Shown: one piece after another, positions 48,296-61,473 of the stretch | How the letters are laid out: each line of letters starts with the position of its first letter | Numbering within the stretch: position 1 is the stretch's first letter | From: a virus | Virus record (IMG/VR): IMGVR_UViG_3300010885_055964 | Coordinates: 96,001-160,000 of that record | DNA: 64,000 nt | Direction: 5' to 3' (one strand) | Program-made: the position numbers and the translations under genes | The notes under the pieces: model-generated | What the model saw: only the letters and a program-made list of their open reading frames with translations | What the model was told of the DNA's origin: nothing | Databases searched by the model: none

Positions 48296-51241
48296 ATGGC
48301 TCAGAATCAGAATCCAACGGCTAGCCAATCCGTAAAAATGGATAGTCGTAAATTTCTGGGAGCTTTGAACGATTCAGCTCAGGCTCGTATCACATACTTC
48401 GAGGACAAGATCGCTAGCATGGGCCAGCATGCCGGTAAGAATTACCGGCTGGTAGCTCTACATGCTAAAAACTTATACTTTGAGGATATCGACGCCAACA
48501 ATTTCTATGTGGCTGACCACATAAGAGATAAGGGTAACAAGGTATCAATTTCTAATATCCGTAAGGTGGACATCGTCGAAGAAGAGAAAGCTTCTCTCTT
48601 CGGTGAGTCATGTCTCAAGTTAATCAATGCCATCGAAGAGAATGATCAGAAGGGCATGGGAGCGGCATTCAATAGAATGAGTGCCCAACGGTTTTCTAGC
48701 CGGGTAGTTCCCTTTTCTGGTATGGTTAAAGGTAGAGACAATGTTACTCGTAAGATTACGATCTCGAGCAACACGAACTTAAGCGAAGATATTAGACATA
48801 AATTGATAAGCACCATAGTCGAGAGTCTCCGAGATAAGGTGATCGTGGAAAATGGCCAGATAGTAGCAGGCCAGTTTGTAGATGGTGAGGCATTTAAGCT
48901 GCCAGTTACCAAATGGGCATCTCGTAAGCTAGTCGCTCGCAGAATGCGTGAGACAGCCCAGAATGCATATTGGTCAGAGGGCTTTCAAAAGAGGGTCTCT
49001 CATTGCGCAAGATTGGTAGCAGAAGGTAAGATTCAGGATGCCGTAAAATCGGTAACTACTTTCTTGAGCGAGAACGAAGAGTTTACGTTACTCAGACGTG
49101 ATCAAGTACAGACGTTGATAGAGAACGCTCTCGCTACCAAAGCGGTGTTTAATGACCAATTGGCGACTGACACAGCCACGCTATTCTACAGAACCAATAT
49201 GCGTTTAAGTCGCCATAAGATTATCGACGAGTGGAGAAACATAGCAAGAAAGGCAGAGCATCCTGTCTTAGCAGAAAACGTGCACATACTCGAGTCTGCC
49301 TCGAATTTCGAGCCGGCTTACGATAAGTTCTTGACCCTTATCTTTGAGGCATTCAGCAACAAAGATGTGGCTGCTTCGGCTCTAGCGACGACTCTTACCA
49401 CGTTGATGGACAAGACTCCAAAGATCAAGGAGTCAAATGAGCTTTCCAGTAAGCTCAATGGTCTTATCAGTCGTCTGTCTGGTAAGGATTGCGATGATGC
49501 AGCGATTTATGAAGCTGAGGATTTAATAGCGACAATCCAAGAGGAATTGTCTGCTGCTGATTCGCTTAGCAATTTCGATATGATGCCTGGCGATGAGAAT
49601 GATGTCTCGAGCGTACTGAACAAGGGCCAAGGCCAAGGCCAGCCAATCATTAATATCAATTCTCCACTTATCCAGATAGGTGGGCAGAGTGGTAAGAATG
49701 ATCAAACTGAAGATGAAATACCGGCACTCGATGATGATAACGACGTTGACGAGCTAAGTGCGTTATTGGGTGCAGGTGATGAAGCTCCAGCACCTGCTCC
49801 TGCCCCGGCCCCTGCCGCGAAACCAGCTGCTGCACCAGCTGCTCCTGCCGCACCAGCCGCACCAGCTGCTTCAGGTAATCCTTTCGAAAGCAAGAAGTCG
49901 CGAAAAGCCATCAATGAATCGAGACCGGTTCATTATGAGATGAGAAGAGATGGTATAGACGATGATATGCCAGAAGATGAAGACAATGTGGAAGAGAGCC
50001 GTGACCCATATGCCATAGCCAAGGGCGAATTAGACATAGCTGAAAGTGGTAGGCTGATGTCCGACTACGGGGCACCAGTTATCAATGATTCAGCAGATGT
50101 GCAGCGGATCGTAAAGATCATCAATAGACTAGCTGAAGAGCACCAGCTCGAGGGTGAGCAGTTGCAGGGTAATCTGGTGTACATGGCCGAAGCAGCAATA
50201 AAGGCTATAGGGTTGAGAATACCGGAAGGCAGAATGAACAAGGCTGTCGAGCAATGCCTAGAAATGTACGAGTCACAGTCTAAGAAGTTGCCAGACTTTA
50301 TCAAGAATAAGATGAAGGATGATGATGACTGTGATGACGAAACTGAAGAGGACATGGCTGAGGATCAGCGTAAGGGTCCCCGGATCAGGAAGAATGGTTA
50401 TGCTCGTAGTGCAATAGCAGCGAGAGAACTCAAAGAATCAATCCAGTGGAATCAGACACAGTCTGACGCTTTATTGGGAGAGATGGCCGGTGTCGGGTTC
50501 ATATTTGACCATGGTGGTGACTCCCAATTGAAGCCAGTAATACTGTCTGAGGATGGGTCTGTCGAGATCCCTGTCCCAGAAGAGATTGTGGAAAGTGCTT
50601 ATGCTAGTGCCGGTTTGTTAGATGGTGATGGCCGTAAGTTCGAGGGGTGGCTAAGAGGGTCATTGGAACAATTGAGGCCCATCCTTGACGATGAGGACAC
50701 AGCTCTAGCCGAAGCAATGGCCACAATCAGGACTAATCCAGACGGTTCGTTATCTGTCGAAGTCACAGACGATGTAGACGTTCAAGACGTCCCGAGTTCA
50801 GATGATCTAGACGATTCTGTCGGTATGGCACCAGTGGATTCTGTTACCACATCGGCAGATATTGGTGATGACCTAGGCGACGATGGCGGAATGCCAGACT
50901 TTGAGAAATTTGGTGGAGATTCTGAAGACGAGTCAGAAGATGAATCTGATGAATCTGATGATATGGAATCGGATGAATCTGATGATACGGAATCAGAAGA
51001 TGATTCAGAGGATGGCTCCGATGAGGATGAAGATGAGGACGGGATGTTCGAAGACAAGGACATCACTGACCCTAAGAACTCCAAGTACGCTAAGCATGTC
51101 AAGGAAGACCCTCGAGACATGCCAACTCCAAAGATGACCAAAGATAGCGATGATAAGTTAGATGGCATCGGACCAGACGTAAAAAAGGATGATGGCACTG
51201 GCACCAAGCCACCCACAGCTAGACCGATGAGCAAACAGTGA
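48296..51241 (+). CDS. Large acidic prohead core/inner-head protein (putative)
   Basis: 981 aa between portal and protease; Pro/Ala linker, Asp/Glu-rich tail and many (L/I)xE motifs. Confidence 0.5.
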   Translation: MAQNQNPTASQSVKMDSRKFLGALNDSAQARITYFEDKIASMGQHAGKNYRLVALHAKNLYFEDIDANNFYVADHIRDKGNKVSISNIRKVDIVEEEKASLFGESCLKLINAIEENDQKGMGAAFNRMSAQRFSSRVVPFSGMVKGRDNVTRKITISSNTNLSEDIRHKLISTIVESLRDKVIVENGQIVAGQFVDGEAFKLPVTKWASRKLVARRMRETAQNAYWSEGFQKRVSHCARLVAEGKIQDAVKSVTTFLSENEEFTLLRRDQVQTLIENALATKAVFNDQLATDTATLFYRTNMRLSRHKIIDEWRNIARKAEHPVLAENVHILESASNFEPAYDKFLTLIFEAFSNKDVAASALATTLTTLMDKTPKIKESNELSSKLNGLISRLSGKDCDDAAIYEAEDLIATIQEELSAADSLSNFDMMPGDENDVSSVLNKGQGQGQPIININSPLIQIGGQSGKNDQTEDEIPALDDDNDVDELSALLGAGDEAPAPAPAPAPAAKPAAAPAAPAAPAAPAASGNPFESKKSRKAINESRPVHYEMRRDGIDDDMPEDEDNVEESRDPYAIAKGELDIAESGRLMSDYGAPVINDSADVQRIVKIINRLAEEHQLEGEQLQGNLVYMAEAAIKAIGLRIPEGRMNKAVEQCLEMYESQSKKLPDFIKNKMKDDDDCDDETEEDMAEDQRKGPRIRKNGYARSAIAARELKESIQWNQTQSDALLGEMAGVGFIFDHGGDSQLKPVILSEDGSVEIPVPEEIVESAYASAGLLDGDGRKFEGWLRGSLEQLRPILDDEDTALAEAMATIRTNPDGSLSVEVTDDVDVQDVPSSDDLDDSVGMAPVDSVTTSADIGDDLGDDGGMPDFEKFGGDSEDESEDESDESDDMESDESDDTESEDDSEDGSDEDEDEDGMFEDKDITDPKNSKYAKHVKEDPRDMPTPKMTKDSDDKLDGIGPDVKKDDGTGTKPPTARPMSKQ

Positions 51242-51255
51242 TAATGGAGGCTGTG

Positions 51256-51990
51256 ATGATACCAACTAGAAAACGAGTCGCCGACATAATGCGTGCTTCT
51301 AATTTTGACAGAAGAGTGATAGCAGAGACTGGTGTTCTGCCGGTTGGCTCCAAGTTGATAAGAGACACTTTTGCATTCGATGTCATAGACAAGAAAGAAG
51401 TAGTTATTGAGGGCAAGAATGGGTCGGAGATACCTGCGATGCGGGTGTCTGGTCTGATACAGATGGGCGATCGTGAAAATGCGAATGGTAGACTATACTC
51501 TACTGCTGAGGTTTTAAGGCCAGCAGTTCAGAATATACAGGAAGATATTCAGTCCAGGGCTGTGATGGGTGAATATGATCATCCAGCAGACGCCAAAATA
51601 CATCTAGATAGAGTCAGTCATTTGATGACTAAGGTATGGATGGACGGCAGAAAGGTGTATGGCGAGGCAGAGATATTATACAACCTGCCGTGTGGTGCTT
51701 GCTTGCGTGGACTATTCGAACATAAAGTCAGAGTTGGCATATCATCACGCGGTGTAGGCGATATGGAAGTAGTTGAGAGTTCTGGTAAAGAACTATACCG
51801 CGTAATGCCAGGATACAACTTTGTCACATGGGATGCTGTTGCCGAACCTTCAGTAAATGGGGCAATACTTAATATTCAAGAGGGATTAGCACGTAAGATA
51901 AAGCCATTGAGCAATAATAAACATAAATTTAATCCTGAATTATATCAGGGTATATTAGTTAAAGAAATAAACAAATATTTTGGTCTGTAA
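51256..51990 (+). CDS. gp21: Prohead maturation protease
   Basis: NANGR.Y, GEYDHP, VSH, P.G..L, VGISSRG.G and WD.V..PS motifs; SD GGAGG at 51246-51250 favours ATG 51256. Confidence 0.93.
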   Translation: MIPTRKRVADIMRASNFDRRVIAETGVLPVGSKLIRDTFAFDVIDKKEVVIEGKNGSEIPAMRVSGLIQMGDRENANGRLYSTAEVLRPAVQNIQEDIQSRAVMGEYDHPADAKIHLDRVSHLMTKVWMDGRKVYGEAEILYNLPCGACLRGLFEHKVRVGISSRGVGDMEVVESSGKELYRVMPGYNFVTWDAVAEPSVNGAILNIQEGLARKIKPLSNNKHKFNPELYQGILVKEINKYFGL

Positions 51991-52004
51991 CAAATAGCTT
52001 GGCT

Positions 52005-52037
52005 TAACCTCGTCTAGTATATAACCAGGCGAGGTTA
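52005..52037 (+). promoter_or_regulatory. RBS-sequestering hairpin upstream of the endonuclease gene
   Basis: TAACCTCGTCT (52005-52015) pairs with AGGCGAGGTTA (52027-52037) with one G-U pair, enclosing AGTATATAACC; the SD GAGG is in the 3' arm and the ATG is at 52039. Confidence 0.7.
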
Positions 52038-52038
52038 T

Positions 52039-53613
52039 ATGATAGACTGGACTCTTTCTAATTATAATGTGAATAATGTAAAGAATCGATGTATAGTCAT
52101 AGTAGTATGTGAATCCTGTGATCGAAAACGTGAACAATCGTATCAAGTGGCTAAGAGAAAGCCTACACATATATGTATGTCTTGCGTTCAATCTAAAAAT
52201 AAACATGGTAATTTTAAAACTGGCCAATTAGTCATTCATAGATGTACTTGTGGTATAGAGAAGGAATTAAAATACAGACCAAATAGATATGAAGGATGGC
52301 AATGCCACCATTGTGCGATGGTGCAGGGTCACAAGGATGGTAAATTTAAGATAACCCGTAATGTACCATCAGAGGAAGGTAAGAAGAGATTATCTATTAT
52401 AGCCAAGCAGAGATGGAATGATCCAGCGTATAGGGAAACAATGGCTGCTAAAAAAGCAGCTTCTAGGGACAAAAGATCCGCGATATCCAAACGACAGTGG
52501 TCGGATGATGATAGATTAAGGGCCTTGTCAGAGTCACTTAAAAAATTATGGCTAGATGAAGAATATAGGGCTGTAAAGACCAATCAAAGTAGGCAGCTAT
52601 GGTCAAATGAACTATACATAGAAGCACAATCCAATGGTTACAATAACGATGTAAGAAGAACCATATCTGAAAGTAGTGCAAAAAGATGGCAGGATGATAG
52701 CTATAAAGAGAAAATGGTTCACTATAGAGCTAATCAACCTAGGGTAAGTAATATACAGGTTTTACTATACAAATTGTTAGATGATTTGAATGTGACTTAT
52801 TTCAAAGAAGGATCAGAAACAGTAATAGGACCATATTCATTTGATTGTCTGATACCTGCCAAGAAGAAGTTATTAATAGAGTGTCAAGGAGACTATTGGC
52901 ATACTTTGGAAAAGGCGGCGAGTAGAGATAGAGCCAAGTTTACTTATATTAATAGATATTTCCCAGAACATGAAATAATGTATATCTGGGAACACGAATT
53001 CTATGCTAAAGACAAGGTGTTAGGGCGGCTAAAACACAAACTAGGAATAGATATCTTAGTAGAGGAATATGACTTTAGTGATGTAACGATTAAAGATGAT
53101 ATCAAAGCTGCAGATATAAATAACTTTTTAGATGCATATCATTATATTGGTAAAGGTAGATCTGGGCATAATTTTGGAGCTTATTTAGGTGATCAACTAA
53201 TTGGTTGCGTCGTATACTCTAATTTAGTTAGACAAAATATTGCACACCAATTTGATGGATCGTGTGTTGAATTGTCTAGGTTATGCATCCATCCCAAATA
53301 TCAAAAGCATAATTTAGCTAGTTATTTTGTTTCGAGGACATTTAAAAACCTAAAATATAACAATGTGGTGAGTTATTGTGATACTACTGTTGGACATACA
53401 GGAGCTGTCTATAAGTCGCTTGGGTTTACATTGCACCATGAGGTAGATCCTGATTATTGGTATGTTGATATTAATGGGTGGGTAATGCATAAGAAGACAT
53501 TATATGAGCGTGCTAAGAAAATGAGCATCAAAGAGAATGATTACGCTCACCGATTTGGATATATTAGGATATATGGCGGCAAGAAATATTGCTTTGTCAA
53601 GCAATTATATTAA
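52039..53613 (+). CDS. Free-standing endonuclease fusion A: zinc ribbons + basic repeats + DUF559/Vsr-like nuclease + Mom-like GNAT domain
   Basis: CxxC pairs; K.RW.D..Y repeats; FD..IP...LIECQGDYWH...D..K...WEHE; YHY.G...GAY...ELSR.C...SYCD...H.GA.YK motifs. Confidence 0.7.
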   Translation: MIDWTLSNYNVNNVKNRCIVIVVCESCDRKREQSYQVAKRKPTHICMSCVQSKNKHGNFKTGQLVIHRCTCGIEKELKYRPNRYEGWQCHHCAMVQGHKDGKFKITRNVPSEEGKKRLSIIAKQRWNDPAYRETMAAKKAASRDKRSAISKRQWSDDDRLRALSESLKKLWLDEEYRAVKTNQSRQLWSNELYIEAQSNGYNNDVRRTISESSAKRWQDDSYKEKMVHYRANQPRVSNIQVLLYKLLDDLNVTYFKEGSETVIGPYSFDCLIPAKKKLLIECQGDYWHTLEKAASRDRAKFTYINRYFPEHEIMYIWEHEFYAKDKVLGRLKHKLGIDILVEEYDFSDVTIKDDIKAADINNFLDAYHYIGKGRSGHNFGAYLGDQLIGCVVYSNLVRQNIAHQFDGSCVELSRLCIHPKYQKHNLASYFVSRTFKNLKYNNVVSYCDTTVGHTGAVYKSLGFTLHHEVDPDYWYVDINGWVMHKKTLYERAKKMSIKENDYAHRFGYIRIYGGKKYCFVKQLY

Positions 53614-53653
53614 TATTATCTGTCAAATATAAATATAACCAAAGGAGAATTAT

Positions 53654-54001
53654 ATGAAGGTATCTAGTGAATACGGACCTTTACATGTGAATATGCTTGC
53701 TTCTAGCGTTAATAAGTCGATGAAAACAGTATATTTTTGGATAATGAATACTTTAAATCCCAAAGAGAATATTACATTTGGGTTTGAACATGATTCGGTT
53801 TATGTGGGAGCTAGGGCTGACGTCGAGGGTTCATCTGGGGTATATGGTTGGGCATTGATAGCCCACCGAGATGGTACTGCAACACTTCAAGTAAGAGATG
53901 AAAAAGGTGGTGCAGTAACAGTAGACTTGCTTAAGGCCGCTAGGGTTTTGAAGCGGCTTATAGATGCTGAAGATACTAATGCTAGCCAAGACGATGAATA
54001 A
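53654..54001 (+). CDS. Hypothetical protein
   Basis: SD AAGGAG; 115 aa. Confidence 0.65.
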   Translation: MKVSSEYGPLHVNMLASSVNKSMKTVYFWIMNTLNPKENITFGFEHDSVYVGARADVEGSSGVYGWALIAHRDGTATLQVRDEKGGAVTVDLLKAARVLKRLIDAEDTNASQDDE

Positions 54002-54096
54002 TAAAATACCTGGATTTAATCAAAGATATATAGTAAATAGGGAATGCTCGACTCAGGCAAAAATAACATTACACGTTATCAGTGAGGAGTTAAGAG

Positions 54097-54816
54097 ATGG
54101 ATAAGATTAAGGCGCTTCTCGAAAAAGCTGGTGTCAAGAGTGAGTTGGCTGACCAGATATGCGAGTCGCTGGCCAATTATAAGACATCTCTACGTCAACA
54201 ATTCAATCAAGAGTATGCTGCTAAGGTCGAGCAGGCCAAGAAGGTCTGCGTTGAAGAGACTGAGGCGCATAAGAGAGAACTTGCACGTCGTGTGCAGATT
54301 TGGTGTGAAACGAAGGGGACAGCGATCGAGGCACAACTTGCTAGGCAGTCGGCCCTTAACGAATCCGATGCCATGTCCAGGCTAACCCGCATAGTAGGAT
54401 TACTAGAGGGTATTGAGCCAAATGGCGGGCAAAGCGGTGAAGTTACAGCCACAATAGAGAAGCTCAAGCAACAGGTCAAAGTCGCATCTGAGGGGAAGGT
54501 TCAAGCAATCGAACTTGCTAATCGCAAGACAGCGATTGCAGAAAAGGCTCTTAAGCGTAACCGGCAATTGGCAACTGCTCTGAAGACACTCGAAGAGCGG
54601 AAGCAACAGGCCCGCCCTGCTAATACCGTTTCGGAAGGAAGGGTACCAGCAAAGGCAGCCCGGATTGATCAGTCACGTGATTCTGGTCGTTCCAGATCAA
54701 CTAGAGCTACCCTCACTGAGAATCAGGATCGTCGTCCAGTGCAGCAGCAAAGACCGTCGACTAATGGTTTCAGCATCGACAACATTGCCGCTGACATGGA
54801 CAGCGATCTAGTTTAA
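54097..54816 (+). CDS. Prohead scaffold/core protein (gp22-like)
   Basis: SD GAGGAG; coiled-coil, charged; immediately upstream of the major capsid gene. Confidence 0.75.
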   Translation: MDKIKALLEKAGVKSELADQICESLANYKTSLRQQFNQEYAAKVEQAKKVCVEETEAHKRELARRVQIWCETKGTAIEAQLARQSALNESDAMSRLTRIVGLLEGIEPNGGQSGEVTATIEKLKQQVKVASEGKVQAIELANRKTAIAEKALKRNRQLATALKTLEERKQQARPANTVSEGRVPAKAARIDQSRDSGRSRSTRATLTENQDRRPVQQQRPSTNGFSIDNIAADMDSDLV

Positions 54817-54866
54817 CTTGTACTTGACCCAATAACAGAGCATTTTTTTATTTAGGAGCAACAAAG

Positions 54867-56495
54867 ATGGCACTGGCTAGAACTGGTAGAACTGGAATGA
54901 GCAGAACTGGAATGAGCAGAACTGGAATGAGCAGAACCGGTTGGACCGGCAGACACCTACAGAACCGTATGGTTACTGAGGCTTCCGATCCCCATCGTGC
55001 ATCTGTCGTGCTCGAGTCCAAGAAGAACCAACTCGTTAAGAAGTGGTCGCCAGTTCTTAACAAGTGCCGTGAGGTTCCCAAGGCCAAGTTCGGCCTGATG
55101 GCTTCGATCCTGGAAAACCAGTACAATGCCTGGAATCCAGGTAATCGATCGATGCTGTTAGAGGATCAGACCACCACGGCTAACATAGCAGACTTCACCC
55201 GGTTTGCTCTGCCCCTGATTCGCAAGTCGTATCCCAAGCTCATTGCTGACAATCTGGTTGGCGTTCAGCCAATGAGCCAGCCAGCAAGCTTGATCTTCTA
55301 CATCAGATATCGTTATGCCCTTTCCAAGGGTCAGACGGTAGCTGGTACGCAGATCATGCGTCAGAACACCGCCCAGAGCTACTCACGCTCTAACGGTTGG
55401 GCACTCGATCCTTACTACAGCTCGCAAGAGGTTCGTGGTGAGGACGCTACGGTTGCTGGCGATTTGATGAACGTATCAGCCACCCTGGCACACCGACCAG
55501 TTCTTGCTGGTACGGTAGTGGTCGAGGTGTTTGCGAGTGAGAACGACGCAAGTCCCAACTGCGATGACGCAGTACCTTGCCTCAGAGTGGGCTTCAACAG
55601 TGCTGGCGATCCGGACGTGGTGCTAATCGGTGACTGCACCGAGTTTACTTCGACCCTAGCAGTAAACGAGTCTGGTTCGAACTTCAATCACGCTACCGGT
55701 GCGGTTAATATCGCACTGTCGGGTGGTTCTTTCCCAGCTGGTGCTGTGGCACGGGTTAACTACGAGTACGATCTCGAGGCTAACCCTTTCCAGCCAGAAG
55801 TGACCATGAGCATCGACAGTGATAGCGTTTCGGCTATACAACGTAAGCTCAAGACCAGCTGGAGCTTGGAGGCGGCTCAGGATCTTAAGGCTGTTCACAA
55901 CATCGATGCCGAGAGCACTCTCACCGACCTTATGGCCGATGAGATGGTCGCGGAACTCGATCGTGAAATCATCAATGACTTGATCATTGCTGCAGCTATC
56001 CGTGCTGAGCACAACTTCGCGACCGCAGCCGGTGCTTCGGTTAACTTCACAGACCGCAACATCGCTCTGATGTACAAGGCTCTGGAAGTTGCCAACATCA
56101 TCCACCGTACCACTCTCCGTGGTCCGGCTAACTGGATGGTGATGAGTGCTGACCTCTGCAGCAAGTTCGAGCAGTTGAACGATTTCCGTGCCAGTGATGC
56201 TTTCAGCACCGAGGGTGTTGACATCGGCATCATGAACGTCGGGACTGTTCAGGGCAAGATGAAGATCTACAAGGATCCACTCTTCCCAAGCTGCAAGATC
56301 CTTCTAGGGTTCAAGGGTAGCAGCGTCCTCGACGCTGGTTACTTCTACGCTCCCTACATTCCGTTGCTAAGCACCCCGACCGTGATGGATCCCAACAGCT
56401 TCACCCCAAGCAAGGGCATCATGACCCGCTACGGGAAGAAGCTCATAGAGGACGGTGGTCTTTACTACGGTGTGATCACTGTCAGCAACCTCTGA
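54867..56495 (+). CDS. gp23: Major capsid protein (gp23-like)
   Basis: KW.P.L, A.LLENQ-like segment, VGVQPM..P...IF..RY, RKLK..WS.EAAQDL.A.H.ID.E, EI.AE..REI and FYAPYIPL motifs. Confidence 0.97.
   Translation: MALARTGRTGMSRTGMSRTGMSRTGWTGRHLQNRMVTEASDPHRASVVLESKKNQLVKKWSPVLNKCREVPKAKFGLMASILENQYNAWNPGNRSMLLEDQTTTANIADFTRFALPLIRKSYPKLIADNLVGVQPMSQPASLIFYIRYRYALSKGQTVAGTQIMRQNTAQSYSRSNGWALDPYYSSQEVRGEDATVAGDLMNVSATLAHRPVLAGTVVVEVFASENDASPNCDDAVPCLRVGFNSAGDPDVVLIGDCTEFTSTLAVNESGSNFNHATGAVNIALSGGSFPAGAVARVNYEYDLEANPFQPEVTMSIDSDSVSAIQRKLKTSWSLEAAQDLKAVHNIDAESTLTDLMADEMVAELDREIINDLIIAAAIRAEHNFATAAGASVNFTDRNIALMYKALEVANIIHRTTLRGPANWMVMSADLCSKFEQLNDFRASDAFSTEGVDIGIMNVGTVQGKMKIYKDPLFPSCKILLGFKGSSVLDAGYFYAPYIPLLSTPTVMDPNSFTPSKGIMTRYGKKLIEDGGLYYGVITVSNL
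54879..54941 (+). repeat. 15-nt tandem repeat in the capsid leader (RTGMS x3 plus partial copies)
   Basis: AGAACTGGAATGAGC in three perfect copies at 54888-54932, flanked by AGAACTGGT and AGAACCGGT. Confidence 0.95.
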
Positions 56496-56525
56496 GAACA
56501 AGCCCTTAATAAGGCTAATAATAAG

Positions 56526-56555
56526 AAACCCGGCCCGAAAGGGCCGGGTTTTTTT
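56526..56555 (+). terminator. Rho-independent terminator after the major capsid gene
   Basis: AAACCCGGCCC-GAAA-GGGCCGGGTTT followed by a T run. Confidence 0.95.
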
Positions 56556-56591
56556 ATGTATTTAAATGTGACTCGTTATGGGAAGAACATA

Positions 56592-58019
56592 ATGCCAATA
56601 CCAGTTAAAGATCAGTTTACTAATGATCAAATACAAGATATAAAAACCTTTTTTAATCAAGGGAAAACCAGAGCAGAGATAGGAGTAATTTATAATAAAC
56701 CACCTAGGACTATAGGGAAGTTATTAAATATTTTAGGAATTAAAAGATCACATTCCGAGGCTGCTAAATTAAAAATATTTTCACCAATAGACAATATGGA
56801 ATCTATAACTATAATAAAGTCAATGCGTAATACTCATAAGCTAGAAGATATAGCGACGAGCTTAAACTCTTCAATTAGTGCTGTTCAGAGGATATGCAAA
56901 AAATATGCTATAGATTTACCAACAGACTATCAAGAGCAGCAGGCGAAGAGGTTAAGGGATGCTTGGACCAATAGCATGAAAGAAGTAGCTTCTGTAAAAT
57001 CAAAACAAAGATGCACCGAAGATATAAGGAATAAACTAAGCAAGGCTTCTAAACTAAGGTGGAAAGAAGATAAATATAGAGAGGTCCAAGCCGAGCATAG
57101 GTCCAAACAAGCTTTTAATATATCATCTATTCAACAATATTTGTACGACATTTTGGATGATATAGGGGTAAAATATTATAGAGAATACAAAGACAAGCAG
57201 AATGATCCGGAGACTGTTATTGGGCCATATAATTTCGATTGTGTGATACCAAGAAATAATAAACCCACTCTTTTGATCGAATGCCAGGGAGATTATTGGC
57301 ACACAATAGATAAAACTATAAGGAAAGACAATCAGAAAAGTTCATATATATCCAACAACTTTGCGAATGAGTATGAACTGAAAACATTGTGGGAACATGA
57401 ATTCAAATGCCACGATAAGATCATGGAATTATTAAAATATTGGTTGGGTATAACCAAATTGGAAGTAATAGAATATGAGTTGAATCAGGTTATTATTAAG
57501 AAAATAGACGTTAAGGAAGCTAATACTCTACTAGACAAATATCATTACTTGTCTGGGTGTGGTAGAGGAGGAATTATCTATGGTGCGTATCTAGATGATA
57601 GATTAATAGCTGTTTGTTGTTTTTCATCATTAATTAGACAAAATCTGCCATATGATCATATTACTAGTAGGGAATTGTCTAGGTTCTGTATACATCCTAA
57701 ATATCAAATGAAAAATTTTGGTAGTTGGTTTATAGCACGATGTATAAAACTTCTTCCGGCCAGCATTAGTTTAATCATATCATACTGTGATACTACATTT
57801 AATCATGATGGGGCTTTATACAAGGCATGTAACTTCTCATTCGATGGCATGGTGCGACCAGATTATTGGTATGTTAATCAAACAAGATGGATTATGCACA
57901 AAAAGACTTTATATAAGCATGCGAAGAAGATGTCTATGACAGAGGTAGAATTCGCAGATAAGAATGGTTATAAGCGAGTGTATGGATCTGAGAAGTTAAG
58001 ATTCATATATCGAAGGTAA
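56592..58019 (+). CDS. Free-standing endonuclease fusion B: HTH + basic repeats + DUF559/Vsr-like nuclease + Mom-like GNAT domain
   Basis: Clear paralogue of 52039-53613 in its C-terminal part (LIECQGDYWHT, WEHEF, YHY, ELSRFC, ISYCDTT, PDYWYV, MHKKTLY). ATG 56556 abuts the terminator, so ATG 56592 is preferred. Confidence 0.7.
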   Translation: MPIPVKDQFTNDQIQDIKTFFNQGKTRAEIGVIYNKPPRTIGKLLNILGIKRSHSEAAKLKIFSPIDNMESITIIKSMRNTHKLEDIATSLNSSISAVQRICKKYAIDLPTDYQEQQAKRLRDAWTNSMKEVASVKSKQRCTEDIRNKLSKASKLRWKEDKYREVQAEHRSKQAFNISSIQQYLYDILDDIGVKYYREYKDKQNDPETVIGPYNFDCVIPRNNKPTLLIECQGDYWHTIDKTIRKDNQKSSYISNNFANEYELKTLWEHEFKCHDKIMELLKYWLGITKLEVIEYELNQVIIKKIDVKEANTLLDKYHYLSGCGRGGIIYGAYLDDRLIAVCCFSSLIRQNLPYDHITSRELSRFCIHPKYQMKNFGSWFIARCIKLLPASISLIISYCDTTFNHDGALYKACNFSFDGMVRPDYWYVNQTRWIMHKKTLYKHAKKMSMTEVEFADKNGYKRVYGSEKLRFIYRR

Positions 58020-58068
58020 TATGGTCTGTAATGCCTTCTGTGGTAGAGAAGGATTAATGGTTAGCAGT

Positions 58069-58099
58069 GGTCAAATATAACGAAAAGGAGAATAATATG
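58069..58099 (+). repeat. 31-nt promoter/RBS cassette, copy 1
   Basis: GGTCAAATATAACGAAAAGGAGAATAATATG matches 61536-61566 with a single mismatch. Confidence 0.85.
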
Positions 58100-58255
58100 A
58101 TACGGAATGGCGACCACAATGAATTCTGTAGTTTCGTATTCAACAGCACAGCTCCAAATAGATATGAAATGGTGCTGGAGTTATCTAAATATAAGAAGGT
58201 AGATTGTTATGAGGAGTATGCAAATGTCCTATGTGGTAACACATTGGCAAGGTGA
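58097..58255 (+). CDS. Small hypothetical protein (52 aa)
   Basis: Strong SD AAGGAG and ATG inside the repeated cassette. Confidence 0.5.
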   Translation: MIRNGDHNEFCSFVFNSTAPNRYEMVLELSKYKKVDCYEEYANVLCGNTLAR

Positions 58256-58314
58256 GTATAGATGGTTAACGATATGAATGTTGCAAAAATCAAATATATA
58301 TAAAAGGATCTTCT

Positions 58315-61300
58315 ATGAGAATAGGTATTATTGCAGAAGGCCCACGAGATGATACTAAATCATTATTATATAATAGGTTAGTCCAACGGGTGAAGTTGGC
58401 CGGATATCACTTTAAACCAATCAACTACCGCAGCACATATAATCCCGTGGCGTGGTTTGCCAGGGTGGTACCAGACGATCCCGAGCTAGAGAAGGCGATG
58501 GGGCATGGGAACGTGATAGACATAGGTATTGTCAATGGTGAGCCAGGTCTGCGTGTGCAACAAATGGGTCATGCCACTACTTGGGAGCAATTAGAAAAGC
58601 TTATAAAACTGCGTATTGAGCGGGAAAAACGGCTATATAGTAAGGGTGCTGCATCGGTTACCAAGGCAAAGGGAATCATAGATATTCTCGATGGTTGCTG
58701 GTCTAAAAACTCTTCTACAGGCATGGTCGGTGGGTTAGTTCAGACCAAAGTTAATGATTCAGGTAGTGGGGTAATTTATCGTAATTATCTCGGTGGGTTA
58801 GTTCAGACACCAGTTAATGATTCAGGTAGTGGGGTAATTTATCGTCATTATCATTTTTCTACTCCTCAATTATCACATGCCGATTTTGAAGGGATTAGTG
58901 TATCGATAAAGGGGGCAATTATAGTACCATTGCAAGTAGCTCGTGCAGCATCTACAGTATTTGAATACACTGCCACCGTCCGGATGTCCGTAGGGCCTAT
59001 AGCCGACGGGAAATATCATGAAATAACACTAAGCATGCATTCGAAAGTACACCCGTCTAATATAACTACATTGTTTTCCACTGAGTCTACGAAAGCGGAA
59101 GAGAGTTTACGCCAGATATCGATATCGAAGTTCAATATAAATAACAATTATCATACGTGGCCATCGGTCCGTGAGATTACTGATCTATCAAAACACATCA
59201 CACAATATGGTGTGAAGATATATGTGCCGAATAATGATCTAAAAGATTATGTAAACAAAAATGTCTTGCGTGTGCTGCAAATGTTGGTTACTGGGGTGAG
59301 AATGCCAGAAATTGATATACCCCAATCCATGGCTGAATTGAGTAGAGTGCTGCGTTCTTATCGGGCTGAGGATGAATGGTATCAACCTATAAAAGCCAAA
59401 ATCGAGGATTACCTGCCAACCTACGATCCTAATTCTGGCACGGTCAGCCGCCAAATGTCAGCTAATTCTGACGAGTTAAATTTATCGATGAACACAGATT
59501 ACGGTCGCGTCAAAGTCAAGCTTGATCGTCCTGATGATACAGGCATGCATTTGATCAAAATAGAACCTGAACAGACCGATGGTATAACTGATGACAAGCA
59601 TCTTACTGCCAAGATCACATCTGAACAAGCGTTGGATTTTTTCGATACAGTTAACTCGATGCTCGAAAAAAGCATTGTGGGAGAGAATTACAGACGAAAA
59701 CTAGATATGATTTTTGAAGATGATTATGACGATATCGGGGAAGATCTTACCGCCCAAATTAAAGAGGTCCTCAAGGACGCGATTCGGAAACACCCAGAGA
59801 TTCAAGTGAAACGAAGTAACTACGTTCAGAAGGGCAATTTACACGGTCTGTTTACACTCTCTCACCCTAATGCCAAAAGATCCTTAGATATCTTGGATAA
59901 TGGCAATCTGGTGGTTGGTTCTTACGGTAGCAAAAAGAGAGAGGTGAATACAGATGCGGAACTTGAGGCGGCCATCGACGACTGGGTAACTGGCAAAACA
60001 AGGAAAGCTCCTCGTGGTCCTGCGGCTCCTCCAACAGATCGGAACCTTAACCAAATTAAACAGGTAAGCAAAAGAACAGGACGCGTTGTTGAGGTGCCAA
60101 TATCTTCCTTCTTCCCATACAACGTGCATCGATTGAATAAAAAGATACCGGGGGTACTAGTCTCCAAAGGCAAGCCATTCACCCTCGCTATAAGTGCCAG
60201 AGACATAGACATACCAAGTGAAATATTTAGCAGTATGGATTTGCATCGTTTCAGCAAAGTCATCAAATCTCCTCAGGACATAGACCAAGGTCCCTCGTAC
60301 AAGCACCTAGGTTGGATAGGCGGTACCGTCGACGGTACTAGCATGCACATTGACGAGGTCCAGTCAGACCTAATGCAGCGTACTATAGAAATGACTAATC
60401 AGGAACAATTTGACATAAAGAATACTAAAACTATCGAAGATATCAAGTCTATGATTGGTCAGAAGCGGCGAGAATTAGCTACAATGAAGCGTGAGTACCA
60501 GCTAGCTCCGGTCAGTCACCGCCTCAGATTAGCTCAGGATATTAATCATGCGGTAAAAGAATTAAAGACTGCTCAAAACAACGCAGCACGGAGATATAAA
60601 CTAACCGATTTTTCGCAATTCAAATCAAAGGTCGAGAATTTTTACAAGAACTGGATAGATGCCTTCTACCATGCTTGTTTTAATTATGCCCGCAAGAATG
60701 GAGTCACAGATGTTTACATTATCTCTAGTGCTATGATCAGTAAAATTTGGAGCAAGGCAAGAGGGAAAGAAGAAGAGGAAGGGAGCATATATTACCGGGC
60801 TTATGACAAGGTTGCCCAAAATCTGGGTGCTGAGAAGGTTGATGACAAATGGTGGCATATTAAATTGGATAAAATCACGCAACGTGAAGCGAAGGATCTC
60901 GAGCTGATTTCGTCGTTGCTTACCGAACATGTGCTGTTGGAATGGGATGGGGTCGACATACGACGAATACTACAATGGTTGGAGCACGCTGGTTTTACCG
61001 TTAGCGAGATCCACGGTGCACATCAGGAAGGAGACTTTAGAAACCTCAGTATGATGGTCTCCAAGATTATCGATGGTCAGGCGATAACGACTCAAGAATA
61101 TACTGATATCAATCCTGAGCAGTTACAGAGGGCACTCAGTTTCGTGCAGTACGACGTTTCAGCAACACCGGTAGAGGAGAACGAGTACGAAGTTGAAGAA
61201 TTAAAGCGTGACGCAGCGATATTAATTACTGCGTACAAGATGATTGGCGATATTCCTTGTGGTATCGCAATCGCGAGTATGGAAGACCCTAACATGGAAA

Positions 61301-61473
61301 TGTTTGTACACGAGCCAGAGAGTGCTGGTATAGGGTACGGCGGGGTGGATTTATTAAATAATCCTGGTTATGAGGAAGAGAAATATCAGGATGATCAAAT
61401 GACCGATGCCGATCTGTTTGGCTTATCACCCGAAGAAATGGACGACATATGGGATCGGCACGGTAATACTTAG
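58315..61473 (+). CDS. Large multi-segment protein, probably packaged and injected (polyvalent-type)
   Basis: 1052 aa; contains MHIDEVQSD.MQ followed by W....Y..A...G...YD, resembling the EIQSD domain of large phage internal proteins; acidic tail. Confidence 0.45.
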   Translation: MRIGIIAEGPRDDTKSLLYNRLVQRVKLAGYHFKPINYRSTYNPVAWFARVVPDDPELEKAMGHGNVIDIGIVNGEPGLRVQQMGHATTWEQLEKLIKLRIEREKRLYSKGAASVTKAKGIIDILDGCWSKNSSTGMVGGLVQTKVNDSGSGVIYRNYLGGLVQTPVNDSGSGVIYRHYHFSTPQLSHADFEGISVSIKGAIIVPLQVARAASTVFEYTATVRMSVGPIADGKYHEITLSMHSKVHPSNITTLFSTESTKAEESLRQISISKFNINNNYHTWPSVREITDLSKHITQYGVKIYVPNNDLKDYVNKNVLRVLQMLVTGVRMPEIDIPQSMAELSRVLRSYRAEDEWYQPIKAKIEDYLPTYDPNSGTVSRQMSANSDELNLSMNTDYGRVKVKLDRPDDTGMHLIKIEPEQTDGITDDKHLTAKITSEQALDFFDTVNSMLEKSIVGENYRRKLDMIFEDDYDDIGEDLTAQIKEVLKDAIRKHPEIQVKRSNYVQKGNLHGLFTLSHPNAKRSLDILDNGNLVVGSYGSKKREVNTDAELEAAIDDWVTGKTRKAPRGPAAPPTDRNLNQIKQVSKRTGRVVEVPISSFFPYNVHRLNKKIPGVLVSKGKPFTLAISARDIDIPSEIFSSMDLHRFSKVIKSPQDIDQGPSYKHLGWIGGTVDGTSMHIDEVQSDLMQRTIEMTNQEQFDIKNTKTIEDIKSMIGQKRRELATMKREYQLAPVSHRLRLAQDINHAVKELKTAQNNAARRYKLTDFSQFKSKVENFYKNWIDAFYHACFNYARKNGVTDVYIISSAMISKIWSKARGKEEEEGSIYYRAYDKVAQNLGAEKVDDKWWHIKLDKITQREAKDLELISSLLTEHVLLEWDGVDIRRILQWLEHAGFTVSEIHGAHQEGDFRNLSMMVSKIIDGQAITTQEYTDINPEQLQRALSFVQYDVSATPVEENEYEVEELKRDAAILITAYKMIGDIPCGIAIASMEDPNMEMFVHEPESAGIGYGGVDLLNNPGYEEEKYQDDQMTDADLFGLSPEEMDDIWDRHGNT
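58727..58852 (+). repeat. 63-nt in-frame tandem duplication (21 aa)
   Basis: GGLVQTKVNDSGSGVIYRNY and GGLVQTPVNDSGSGVIYRHY; copies at 58727-58789 and 58790-58852. Confidence 0.92.

Follow-up and report, generated by a model that had tools for sequence, protein, structure and literature searches.

Two Hef-type genes in a phage head module

Why does a phage carry, on either side of its scaffold and capsid genes, two genes that join a nuclease to a domain of the DNA-modifying Mom type? The question is raised by bases 96001–160000 of a 178 kb IMG/VR viral contig, a stretch of 64,000 nucleotides that is called the window here. The two genes, HEG1 and HEG2 (HEG, homing endonuclease gene), are best explained as Hef-type, free-standing homing endonuclease genes that entered the head module at two intergenic sites and encode three-part proteins, an explanation whose chances, taken as a whole, are put somewhat above even. 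Site A follows the prohead protease gene, and site B the major capsid gene. Gene order across both sites is given below, with the basis of each call in brackets (aa, amino acids).

51238–51990 (+): gp21-type S77 prohead protease gene, the host gene upstream of site A (Pfam Peptidase_S77, 57 bits; phrog_207, 138 bits)
52005–52037 (+): hairpin of 11 bp (sequence and fold)
52039–53613 (+): HEG1, Hef-type homing endonuclease gene, 524 aa (phrog_3339 'homing endonuclease' over the full length; Pfam Mom, 64 bits)
53654–54001 (+): orf115, a small gene within the inserted block at site A
54097–54816 (+): scaffold-like gene, the host gene downstream of site A (adjoins the capsid gene in those relatives whose sequence spans the region)
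54867–56495 (+): gp23-type major capsid protein gene, the host gene upstream of site B (Pfam Gp23, 261 bits; phrog_138, 276 bits)
56523–56554 (+): intrinsic-terminator-like hairpin with a U-run, between the capsid gene and HEG2 (scan and fold)
56556–58019 (+): HEG2, Hef-type homing endonuclease gene, 487 aa as an open reading frame (ORF) (phrog_3339; Pfam Mom, 64.5 bits)

The identity of 40% between HEG1 and HEG2 across about 457 aa (E 3e-98) marks them as paralogues, and a six-frame search of the contig found them as the only copies of the family. Their G+C content is 31–39%, against 45–55% in the flanking head genes. An earlier note, made from the letters of the window alone, had described two paralogous ORFs bracketing the scaffold and capsid genes, each directly after a head gene, with a ribosome-binding-site hairpin before the first and a terminator before the second. 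All of this agrees with the present data: HEG1 stands behind the S77 protease gene and HEG2 behind the gp23-type capsid gene, and both RNA structures were recovered by sequence scan and fold.

The source is an uncultured T4-like jumbo phage. At 178 kb and a completeness of about 49% (CheckV), the contig is a fragment of a jumbo phage genome. Megablast of positions 51000–59000 against GenBank phages gave no match, so that the phage has no close cultured relative among them.

A Vsr-like nuclease of the EDxHD homing family

52732–53073 (+): HEG1 Vsr-like (EDxHD) nuclease, with D269, E281, H288 and D297 (alignment, residue table, profile match to 3r3p)
57108–57455 (+): HEG2 Vsr-like (EDxHD) nuclease, with D228, E242, H249 and D258 (AlphaFold2 model, Foldseek, residue table)

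Both ORFs share a nuclease core with an ECxGDYWH motif that is nearly invariant in the family. An AlphaFold2 (AF2) model of the HEG2 nuclease alone (residues 185–305) reached a predicted local distance difference test (pLDDT) score of 92.8, and its top Foldseek matches were 3r3p_A and 3r3p_B, the catalytic domain of I-Bth0305I (E 1.7e-4, probability 1.00, template modelling (TM) scores 0.65/0.79), with Vsr (1cw0) also listed at TM 0.65. The family profile matches 3r3p by sequence as well (E 8e-4). The residues that correspond to Vsr D51, H69 and D97, and to I-Bth0305I E206, are kept in 57–58 of 58 sequences. Of the former assignment as a DUF559/Vsr-like nuclease, the shared core stands, while the DUF559-like label is imprecise, the domain belonging more exactly to the EDxHD/Vsr-like homing family. 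This family was defined by Taylor et al. 2011 (PMC3239194), who explicitly included phage Hef-type enzymes and reported for I-Bth0305I a long target with a footprint of about 60 bp.

I-Bth0305I thus offers a close comparison, having the same nuclease fold, the catalytic Asp/His/Asp with an extra conserved Glu, and a modular N-terminal DNA-binding region. Unlike HEG1 and HEG2, it is intron-encoded, carries NUMOD/helix-turn-helix (HTH) heads, has no Mom domain and starts the motif with Glu, where Gln is found here.

A C-terminal domain of the Mom family

53101–53610 (+): HEG1 Mom-family GNAT domain, with H368, Y369, R414, S428, D448 and Y458 kept and T450 at the place of Mu R151 (Pfam Mom over residues 355–499; residue mapping)
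57489–58016 (+): HEG2 Mom-family GNAT domain, with H330, Y331, R376, S390, D412 and Y422 kept and T414 at the place of Mu R151 (Pfam Mom; 8bv8 as top match; hhalign)

The Pfam Mom model (PF25680) scores 64.4 and 64.5 bits on the two proteins against a gathering cut-off of 27.1, and 67.8 and 65.6 bits in a six-frame search of the contig; generic GNAT Pfam models stay at or below their own cut-offs. The AF2 model of the HEG2 core (residues 185–487, 58-row alignment; pLDDT 91.7, predicted TM score 0.82) was compared with the PDB. Foldseek placed Mu Mom (8bv8) at the top with E 1.8e-10, the next GNAT following at 2.9e-6, and VIA-align also gave 8bv8 first, with Z 15.5 over 156 residues of chain 20–221. 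Since other GNATs come close behind (Z up to 14.6), the fold alone says only "GNAT", and the placement in the Mom family rests on the Pfam score together with the residue pattern. The resemblance to the Mu Mom GNAT family that had been read from the letters is therefore upheld, both by the Pfam match of 64 bits and by the structure search that the earlier note had proposed for this domain, Mu Mom being first by either program.

Alignment by profile gave the same answer. With hhalign, 165 trimmed Mom domains matched Mu Mom (sequence from NC_000929) at 97.8% and E 5e-12 over Mu residues 26–224, including the Mom-specific C-terminal HTH-like insertion. When the full two-domain profile was used against Mu Mom, its N-terminal half was misaligned and the probability was 14%, and trimming to the Mom domain mended the alignment. 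Phmmer with the HEG1 C-terminus alone found no match in the PDB, and both 8bv8 and 3r3p were reached only by the family profile.

Mom transfers glycine from Gly-tRNA(Gly) to the N6 of adenine in DNA (Silva et al. 2026, PMC13219725); in Mu Mom, the essential residues are R111, S124, D149 and R151, with H58, Y59, Y159, W48 and W181 important (PMC13219725). The set of 165 sequences, selected with an ExxR anchor, keeps H58 and Y59 (each in 163/165), R111 and D149 (165/165), N121 (162/165), S124 as Ser or Thr (164/165) and Y159 (164/165). The Arg and the Asp show no variation either among 94 representatives (50% identity) that were aligned without this selection. The coenzyme A (CoA) pyrophosphate loop of GNATs, Q/R-x-x-G-x-G/A, here reads Q-x-x-N-x-G/A, with the Asn kept in 162 of 165 sequences and aligned with Mu Mom N121. 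On account of this altered loop and of the published cofactor, Gly-tRNA(Gly) (PMC13219725), the label 'acetyltransferase', as given in the earlier note, was rejected, and for the same two reasons an assay with acetyl-CoA would be inapt. Homodimer prediction of the nuclease plus Mom core returned a score of 0.00, 'no answer', which bears neither way on dimerisation.

The catalytic residues of both enzymatic domains are thus kept, with the exception of Mu R151, which is Thr in 153 of the 165 sequences. This substitution, and the lack of conservation at the dimer residue W48 (K, D, A or E), could speak for homing endonucleases whose Mom-like domain is non-catalytic and acts as a module for DNA binding, base flipping or folding, assisting the nuclease in docking on its target. 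Also kept is the HTH-like insertion at the C-terminus, which is predicted to bind DNA. The founding Hef, studied by Sandegren and co-workers in 2005, was reportedly characterised only as a nuclease. However, the seven activity-relevant positions listed above are kept in 98–100% of the 165 sequences, including those fused to LAGLIDADG nucleases, and conservation of this degree is hard to explain without catalysis; in addition, an invariant His three residues after the lost Arg could replace it. A non-catalytic Mom domain is accordingly regarded as unlikely, and a catalytic domain is held to be the likelier of the two.

Relatives differ by the presence of the genes

The comparison set comprised 80 loci (designated L001 onwards) whose capsid proteins are 70–93% identical to that of the window, and gene order was mapped in each. 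In most relatives, the protease gene is followed directly by the scaffold gene. At this junction, site A, a family member was present in only 5 of 56 assessable loci; about half of the 56 have a gap of 54–157 nucleotides (nt), and others carry unrelated cargo. At site B, just after the capsid gene, a family member was found in about 6–9 of 63 loci. In L032, L033 and L046, site A is filled by HEG1 orthologues with 62–63% identity over the full length.

The clearest case is the pair L046 and L048, which are about 97% identical on either side of a clean indel of 2.39 kb. In L046, the inserted DNA is made up of the HEG1 orthologue and, on the reverse strand, an FkbM-type methyltransferase gene. 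Identity is 100% at a distance of 500–700 nt and drops towards the junction, to 86% over the final 250 nt of the protease gene, a gradient that, in this single pair of loci, is the pattern expected of co-conversion or of target polymorphism. The closest capsid relative (93% identical) has no HEG1, and the gene at its HEG2 site is only 50% identical. Because most related phages lack the genes at both sites and a near-isogenic pair differs by a clean indel, HEG1 and HEG2 are read from these comparisons as mobile AT-rich inserts, which fits the previous description of mobile homing-type nuclease genes.

The heads of the two proteins add to this picture.

52108–52314 (+): HEG1 head, two Cys4 zinc ribbons, residues 24–92 (CxxC/CxC pairs, kept in the L046 and L032 orthologues)
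52405–52713 (+): HEG1, five K/R-x-W-x-D-x-x-Y-R helical repeats, residues 123–225 (motif scan)
56592–56915 (+): HEG2 N-terminal HTH head (weak HTH_38 match in the protein of the window)

In HEG1, the ribbons are formed by C24xxC27...C46xxC49 and C69xC71...C89xxC92, and the repeats that follow are presumed to be a DNA-binding array. In same-site homologues of HEG2, Sigma70_r4, HTH_38 and HTH_23 score above cut-off. The contrast between zinc ribbons and an HTH, already pointed out from the letters, is therefore real, with Cys4 motifs in HEG1 and HTH matches in HEG2 and its homologues. Head type tracks the insertion site: the zinc-ribbon type stands at site A in L032, L033 and L046, and HEG2-type HTH genes stand at site B in L001, L003 and L041. 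The exceptions are L056 and L058, which have an HTH-type gene at the protease site. Of the former proposal of swappable targeting domains, the exchange of heads within the family is borne out, while the setting of the target by the head is a step that we infer.

These observations also bear on a different explanation, a genome-wide conflict system in place of homing, in which momylation would shield all phage DNA from host restriction and the nuclease would degrade host DNA or that of superinfecting phages. Iyer et al. 2021 (PMC7824862) proposed this for jumbo-phage Mom fused to nucleases of the restriction endonuclease fold, momylation protecting phage DNA and the nuclease attacking other DNA, and Mu Mom is indeed an anti-restriction enzyme. 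However, the window has two paralogues with different sequence-specific heads and a Mom domain each, and presence or absence is strictly linked to sites beside conserved head genes, with head type following the site. Moreover, the nuclease comes from a homing family with a long target (the I-Bth0305I footprint cited above, PMC3239194), and most close relatives have neither gene. A conflict system is thus considered quite improbable at this locus, and site-specific homing is retained as the preferred explanation.

As a separate observation, this clade has a general hot spot for insertion at the protease/scaffold junction, where methyltransferases of FkbM, TylF and Methyltransf_24 types and a family-2 glycosyltransferase are found (L046:5139-5882(-), L032:3507-4241(-), L028:1722-6142). 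In L046 and L032, the methyltransferase genes adjoin the HEG1-type gene.

Upstream RNA structures and start codons

Both genes lie behind RNA structures. In the hairpin before HEG1, a GAGG Shine–Dalgarno sequence is placed in the 3' arm and 2 nt separate the end of the stem from the ATG at 52039; folding of the 76-nt region gives a z-score of only −1.7. The terminator-like hairpin before HEG2 is a G+C-rich stem of 13–14 bp with a U-run, and its region has z = −5.0, a folding equalled by 0 of 200 shuffles. The first ATG of HEG2 lies inside the U-tract of this terminator and homologues begin with MPIPVKDQF..., at the equivalent of Met13, so that the true start is probably Met13 (ATG at 56592), giving a protein of 475 aa.

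In T4, upstream RNA structures of this kind restrain the expression of free-standing endonuclease genes. Such expression-limiting structures before both genes, and the fact that homing genes commonly decay after fixation, would be in line with genes that have stopped moving, either as regulators that became fixed and domesticated or as remnants in decay. Against this, neither ORF is truncated and all catalytic residues are intact (Mu R151 apart), near-isogenic relatives differ by presence or absence, and the closest capsid relative shows the differences at both sites given above. Genes that have ceased to move are therefore judged highly improbable, and active homing genes remain the favoured reading.

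Other combinations of a cutter and a modifier

Related loci carry other nucleases joined to the same kind of domain. Directly after the capsid gene, L047:8747-10171 encodes HTH + LAGLIDADG + Mom (LAGLIDADG_3, 32 bits; Mom, 87 bits), a build shared by at least 16 protein clusters (49–91% identity). The Mom residues are kept in these fusions, with Thr at the S124 position. At the post-capsid site of L051, an HTH, a NUMOD3 and a different nuclease-like region precede Mom; in this protein, a Vsr-like domain was detected neither by the family hidden Markov model (HMM) nor by a nuclease-only profile with hhalign.

In addition, the Mom slot itself can be taken by another domain. L053:8630-10471 and L059:2536-4485, also at the post-capsid site, have the HTH head of HEG2, a PD...ExK-like motif and then a domain with DPxMGxGG and TSPPY. 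With an Atlas feature score of 0.97 and TM 0.80–0.86, this last domain is similar to N4/N6 DNA methyltransferases of phages and is a probable N6/N4 DNA methyltransferase, with weak sequence scores in L053 (Pfam N6_N4_Mtase, E 0.021; PDB, E 0.085). As far as these comparisons go, the design of a cutter plus a DNA modifier recurs with unrelated parts, which makes a DNA-modifying role of the Mom slot more likely, by analogy, than a purely structural one.

Relation to known systems

The family is very large. The full-length form gave more than 400 matches in a word-indexed search, and an exhaustive search with the Mom domain alone returned 2750 clusters (50% identity) at E <= 1e-3, of which 284 reach E <= 1e-30. 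Among the best 150 Mom-domain clusters, nearly all have it at the C-terminus of a protein of 350–750 aa. Mom was found in 93 of 94 diverse representatives, whose partners were 60 MTES_1575, 9 Vsr and 3 DUF559 matches (mostly Vsr-like). That free-standing copies of this Mom subtype are common was considered and rejected, since most of the 21 matches in a search of shorter proteins lie on contigs roughly 1 kb long and are probably fragments.

Several results place HEG1 and HEG2 among known Hef-like enzymes. The match to phrog_3339 has E 1e-23 and covers profile positions 162–533 of 536. By tblastn, both domains match 'Hef-like homing endonucleases' of Campylobacter phages, in 5–10 places per genome at 23–27% identity, and hhalign against Hef74 of Campylobacter phage NCTC12673 gave 98.4% over both domains. 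NCBIfam gave nothing above cut-off, and PADLOC a weak 'HEase' match only, with no defence-system model. The architecture is therefore that of an ordinary 'Hef-like homing endonuclease', as a caveat in the earlier note had foreseen with the remark that similar proteins are often annotated in this way.

Hef-like enzymes (PHROG 3339/559; Hef74 and Hef73 of NCTC12673, CP30A and CPX; F-LimIII, VII, VIII and X of Dickeya phage LIMEstone1) have the same succession of head, Vsr-like nuclease and Mom-like GNAT, and their genes are free-standing beside conserved phage genes with several paralogues per genome, as here. They differ from the pair in the window in their heads and in the clade of the host phage, and the Campylobacter copies are too divergent for the Pfam Mom model, which the copies of the window pass clearly. 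Hef74 lies directly after gp23, like HEG2, and is annotated as similar to U5 Hef; statements on U5 Hef are based on Edgell et al. 2010 (PMC2988022) and the GenBank annotation note. In that phage (L082, GU296433.1), Hef74 and Hef73 form a tandem right after gp23, each bounded by annotated 63-nt repeat units.

Mu Mom (PDB 8bv8, PF25680) shares the GNAT fold with the C-terminal insertion and the seven kept residues (H58, Y59, R111, N121, S124, D149 and Y159). It is a free-standing dimer of 241 aa with a genome-wide anti-restriction function, whereas here Mom is the C-terminus of a site-specific nuclease with R151 as Thr and W48 not kept. The fusions of Iyer et al. 2021 (PMC7824862), also from jumbo phage, show the same fusion and carry the same cut-and-protect prediction. 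The fusion design and the cut-and-protect idea, which the earlier note had also put forward, are thus already published. The difference lies in the nuclease, which Iyer et al. 2021 (PMC7824862) treated as a restriction component against host or superinfecting DNA, while the comparative data obtained here point to site-specific homing.

A proposed explanation and what weighs against it

In the explanation proposed here, the exchangeable N-terminal head would presumably set the target, and the Vsr-like EDxHD nuclease would cut the HEG-less allele in a co-infecting relative. Recombinational repair would then copy the HEG, together with neighbouring head-gene sequence, into the cut allele. Cleavage, homing and target choice by the head are inferred steps. 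The Mom domain may be an active transferase that probably draws, as Mu Mom does, on aminoacyl-tRNA and not on acetyl-CoA, and that modifies an adenine in or near the target of its own enzyme and so shields the carrier genome; for this part, the chances are put a little short of even.

Cutting and protection would then be united in a single chain, in a manner comparable to Type IIG restriction-modification enzymes. In Type IIG/IIC enzymes such as MmeI and BcgI, one polypeptide is nuclease, DNA modifier and recognition module. Those enzymes are built from unrelated domains (a methyltransferase and a different nuclease) and serve cellular defence, unlike the mobile phage genes described here.

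A wider role can be advanced tentatively, as a possibility that we hold to be less likely than not. Mom would be a general accessory of free-standing homing nucleases and, guided by the head, would draw on an aminoacyl-tRNA to put a bulky adduct on one target adenine, so that the virion DNA of the carrier would be pre-immunised and unmarked alleles of co-infecting relatives would be cut. Such a protein would be a tRNA-dependent hybrid of homing and restriction-modification in one polypeptide; the modifier slot could hold Mom or a DNA methyltransferase, and the cutter slot a Vsr-like, LAGLIDADG or PD-(D/E)xK nuclease. Points in favour of a modifier role are the same Mom subtype on LAGLIDADG nucleases, the probable methyltransferase in the same slot (L053, L059) and the fact that this Mom subtype is almost never free-standing.

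Several points weigh against the explanation. The first EDxHD residue (Vsr E25, I-Bth E170) is an invariant Gln in 58 of 58 sequences (HEG2 Q193, HEG1 Q240), an equivalence that was placed by eye from helix register and not by computed alignment, and that is less certain for this reason; the region of this residue is weakly conserved (Taylor et al. 2011, PMC3239194). With R151 replaced by Thr and W48 lost, the chemistry of the Mom domain may differ or be lost. A fused modifier meets both alleles in a mixed infection, which complicates the distinction of self from non-self. The gradient of divergence beside HEG1 comes from one pair of loci, and the methyltransferase call in L053 combines weak sequence scores with an Atlas look-alike search, which provides leads rather than tests.

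Neighbouring genes

The following ORFs flank the region described above.

48296–51241: acidic protein of 981 aa
58067–58255: small ORF of 62 aa
58315–61473: protein of 1052 aa

The gene at 54097–54816 would have a scaffold function, as its position suggests. For orf115, no Pfam or PHROG match and no tblastn relative in the 80 related loci were found, and it is possibly cargo in the block at site A. The 62-aa ORF and the 1052-aa protein (58067–61473) had no tblastn match within up to 7 kb after the capsid gene in the 80 relatives, and the post-capsid region is therefore highly variable in the clade.

The longest capsid ORF opens with a threefold GMSRTG repeat (54867–54960). Capsid relatives mostly align from about residue 28 on, some from residues 8–13, and since most do so only from residue 28, the true start codon may lie further downstream.

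In L021 (L021:3431-5353), and likewise in L002, the prohead protease is one continuous ORF of 640 aa with an in-frame LAGLIDADG intein. The intein lies in the conserved DHP|ADAKIH motif, splitting the protease at about residues 117–140, with Cys as its first residue and Cys opening the downstream protease segment. Rfam detected no group I intron in L021 and L002, and an intron in this protease gene was rejected, the split being explained by the in-frame intein.

Significance

HEG1 and HEG2 are ordinary further members of the very large Hef-like family. The question of interest is why homing nucleases carry a Mom-type domain so consistently, with its catalytic residues almost invariant. The Gly-tRNA cofactor of Mom, known since 2026 (PMC13219725), makes this question directly testable. 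The probable methyltransferase found in the same slot and the LAGLIDADG–Mom fusions, both comparative evidence, argue for a DNA-modifying role. If the domain does modify its own target, this would explain how an intact target is kept in the genome of a free-standing homing endonuclease, and the toolbox would gain a site-directed DNA modifier that depends on tRNA.

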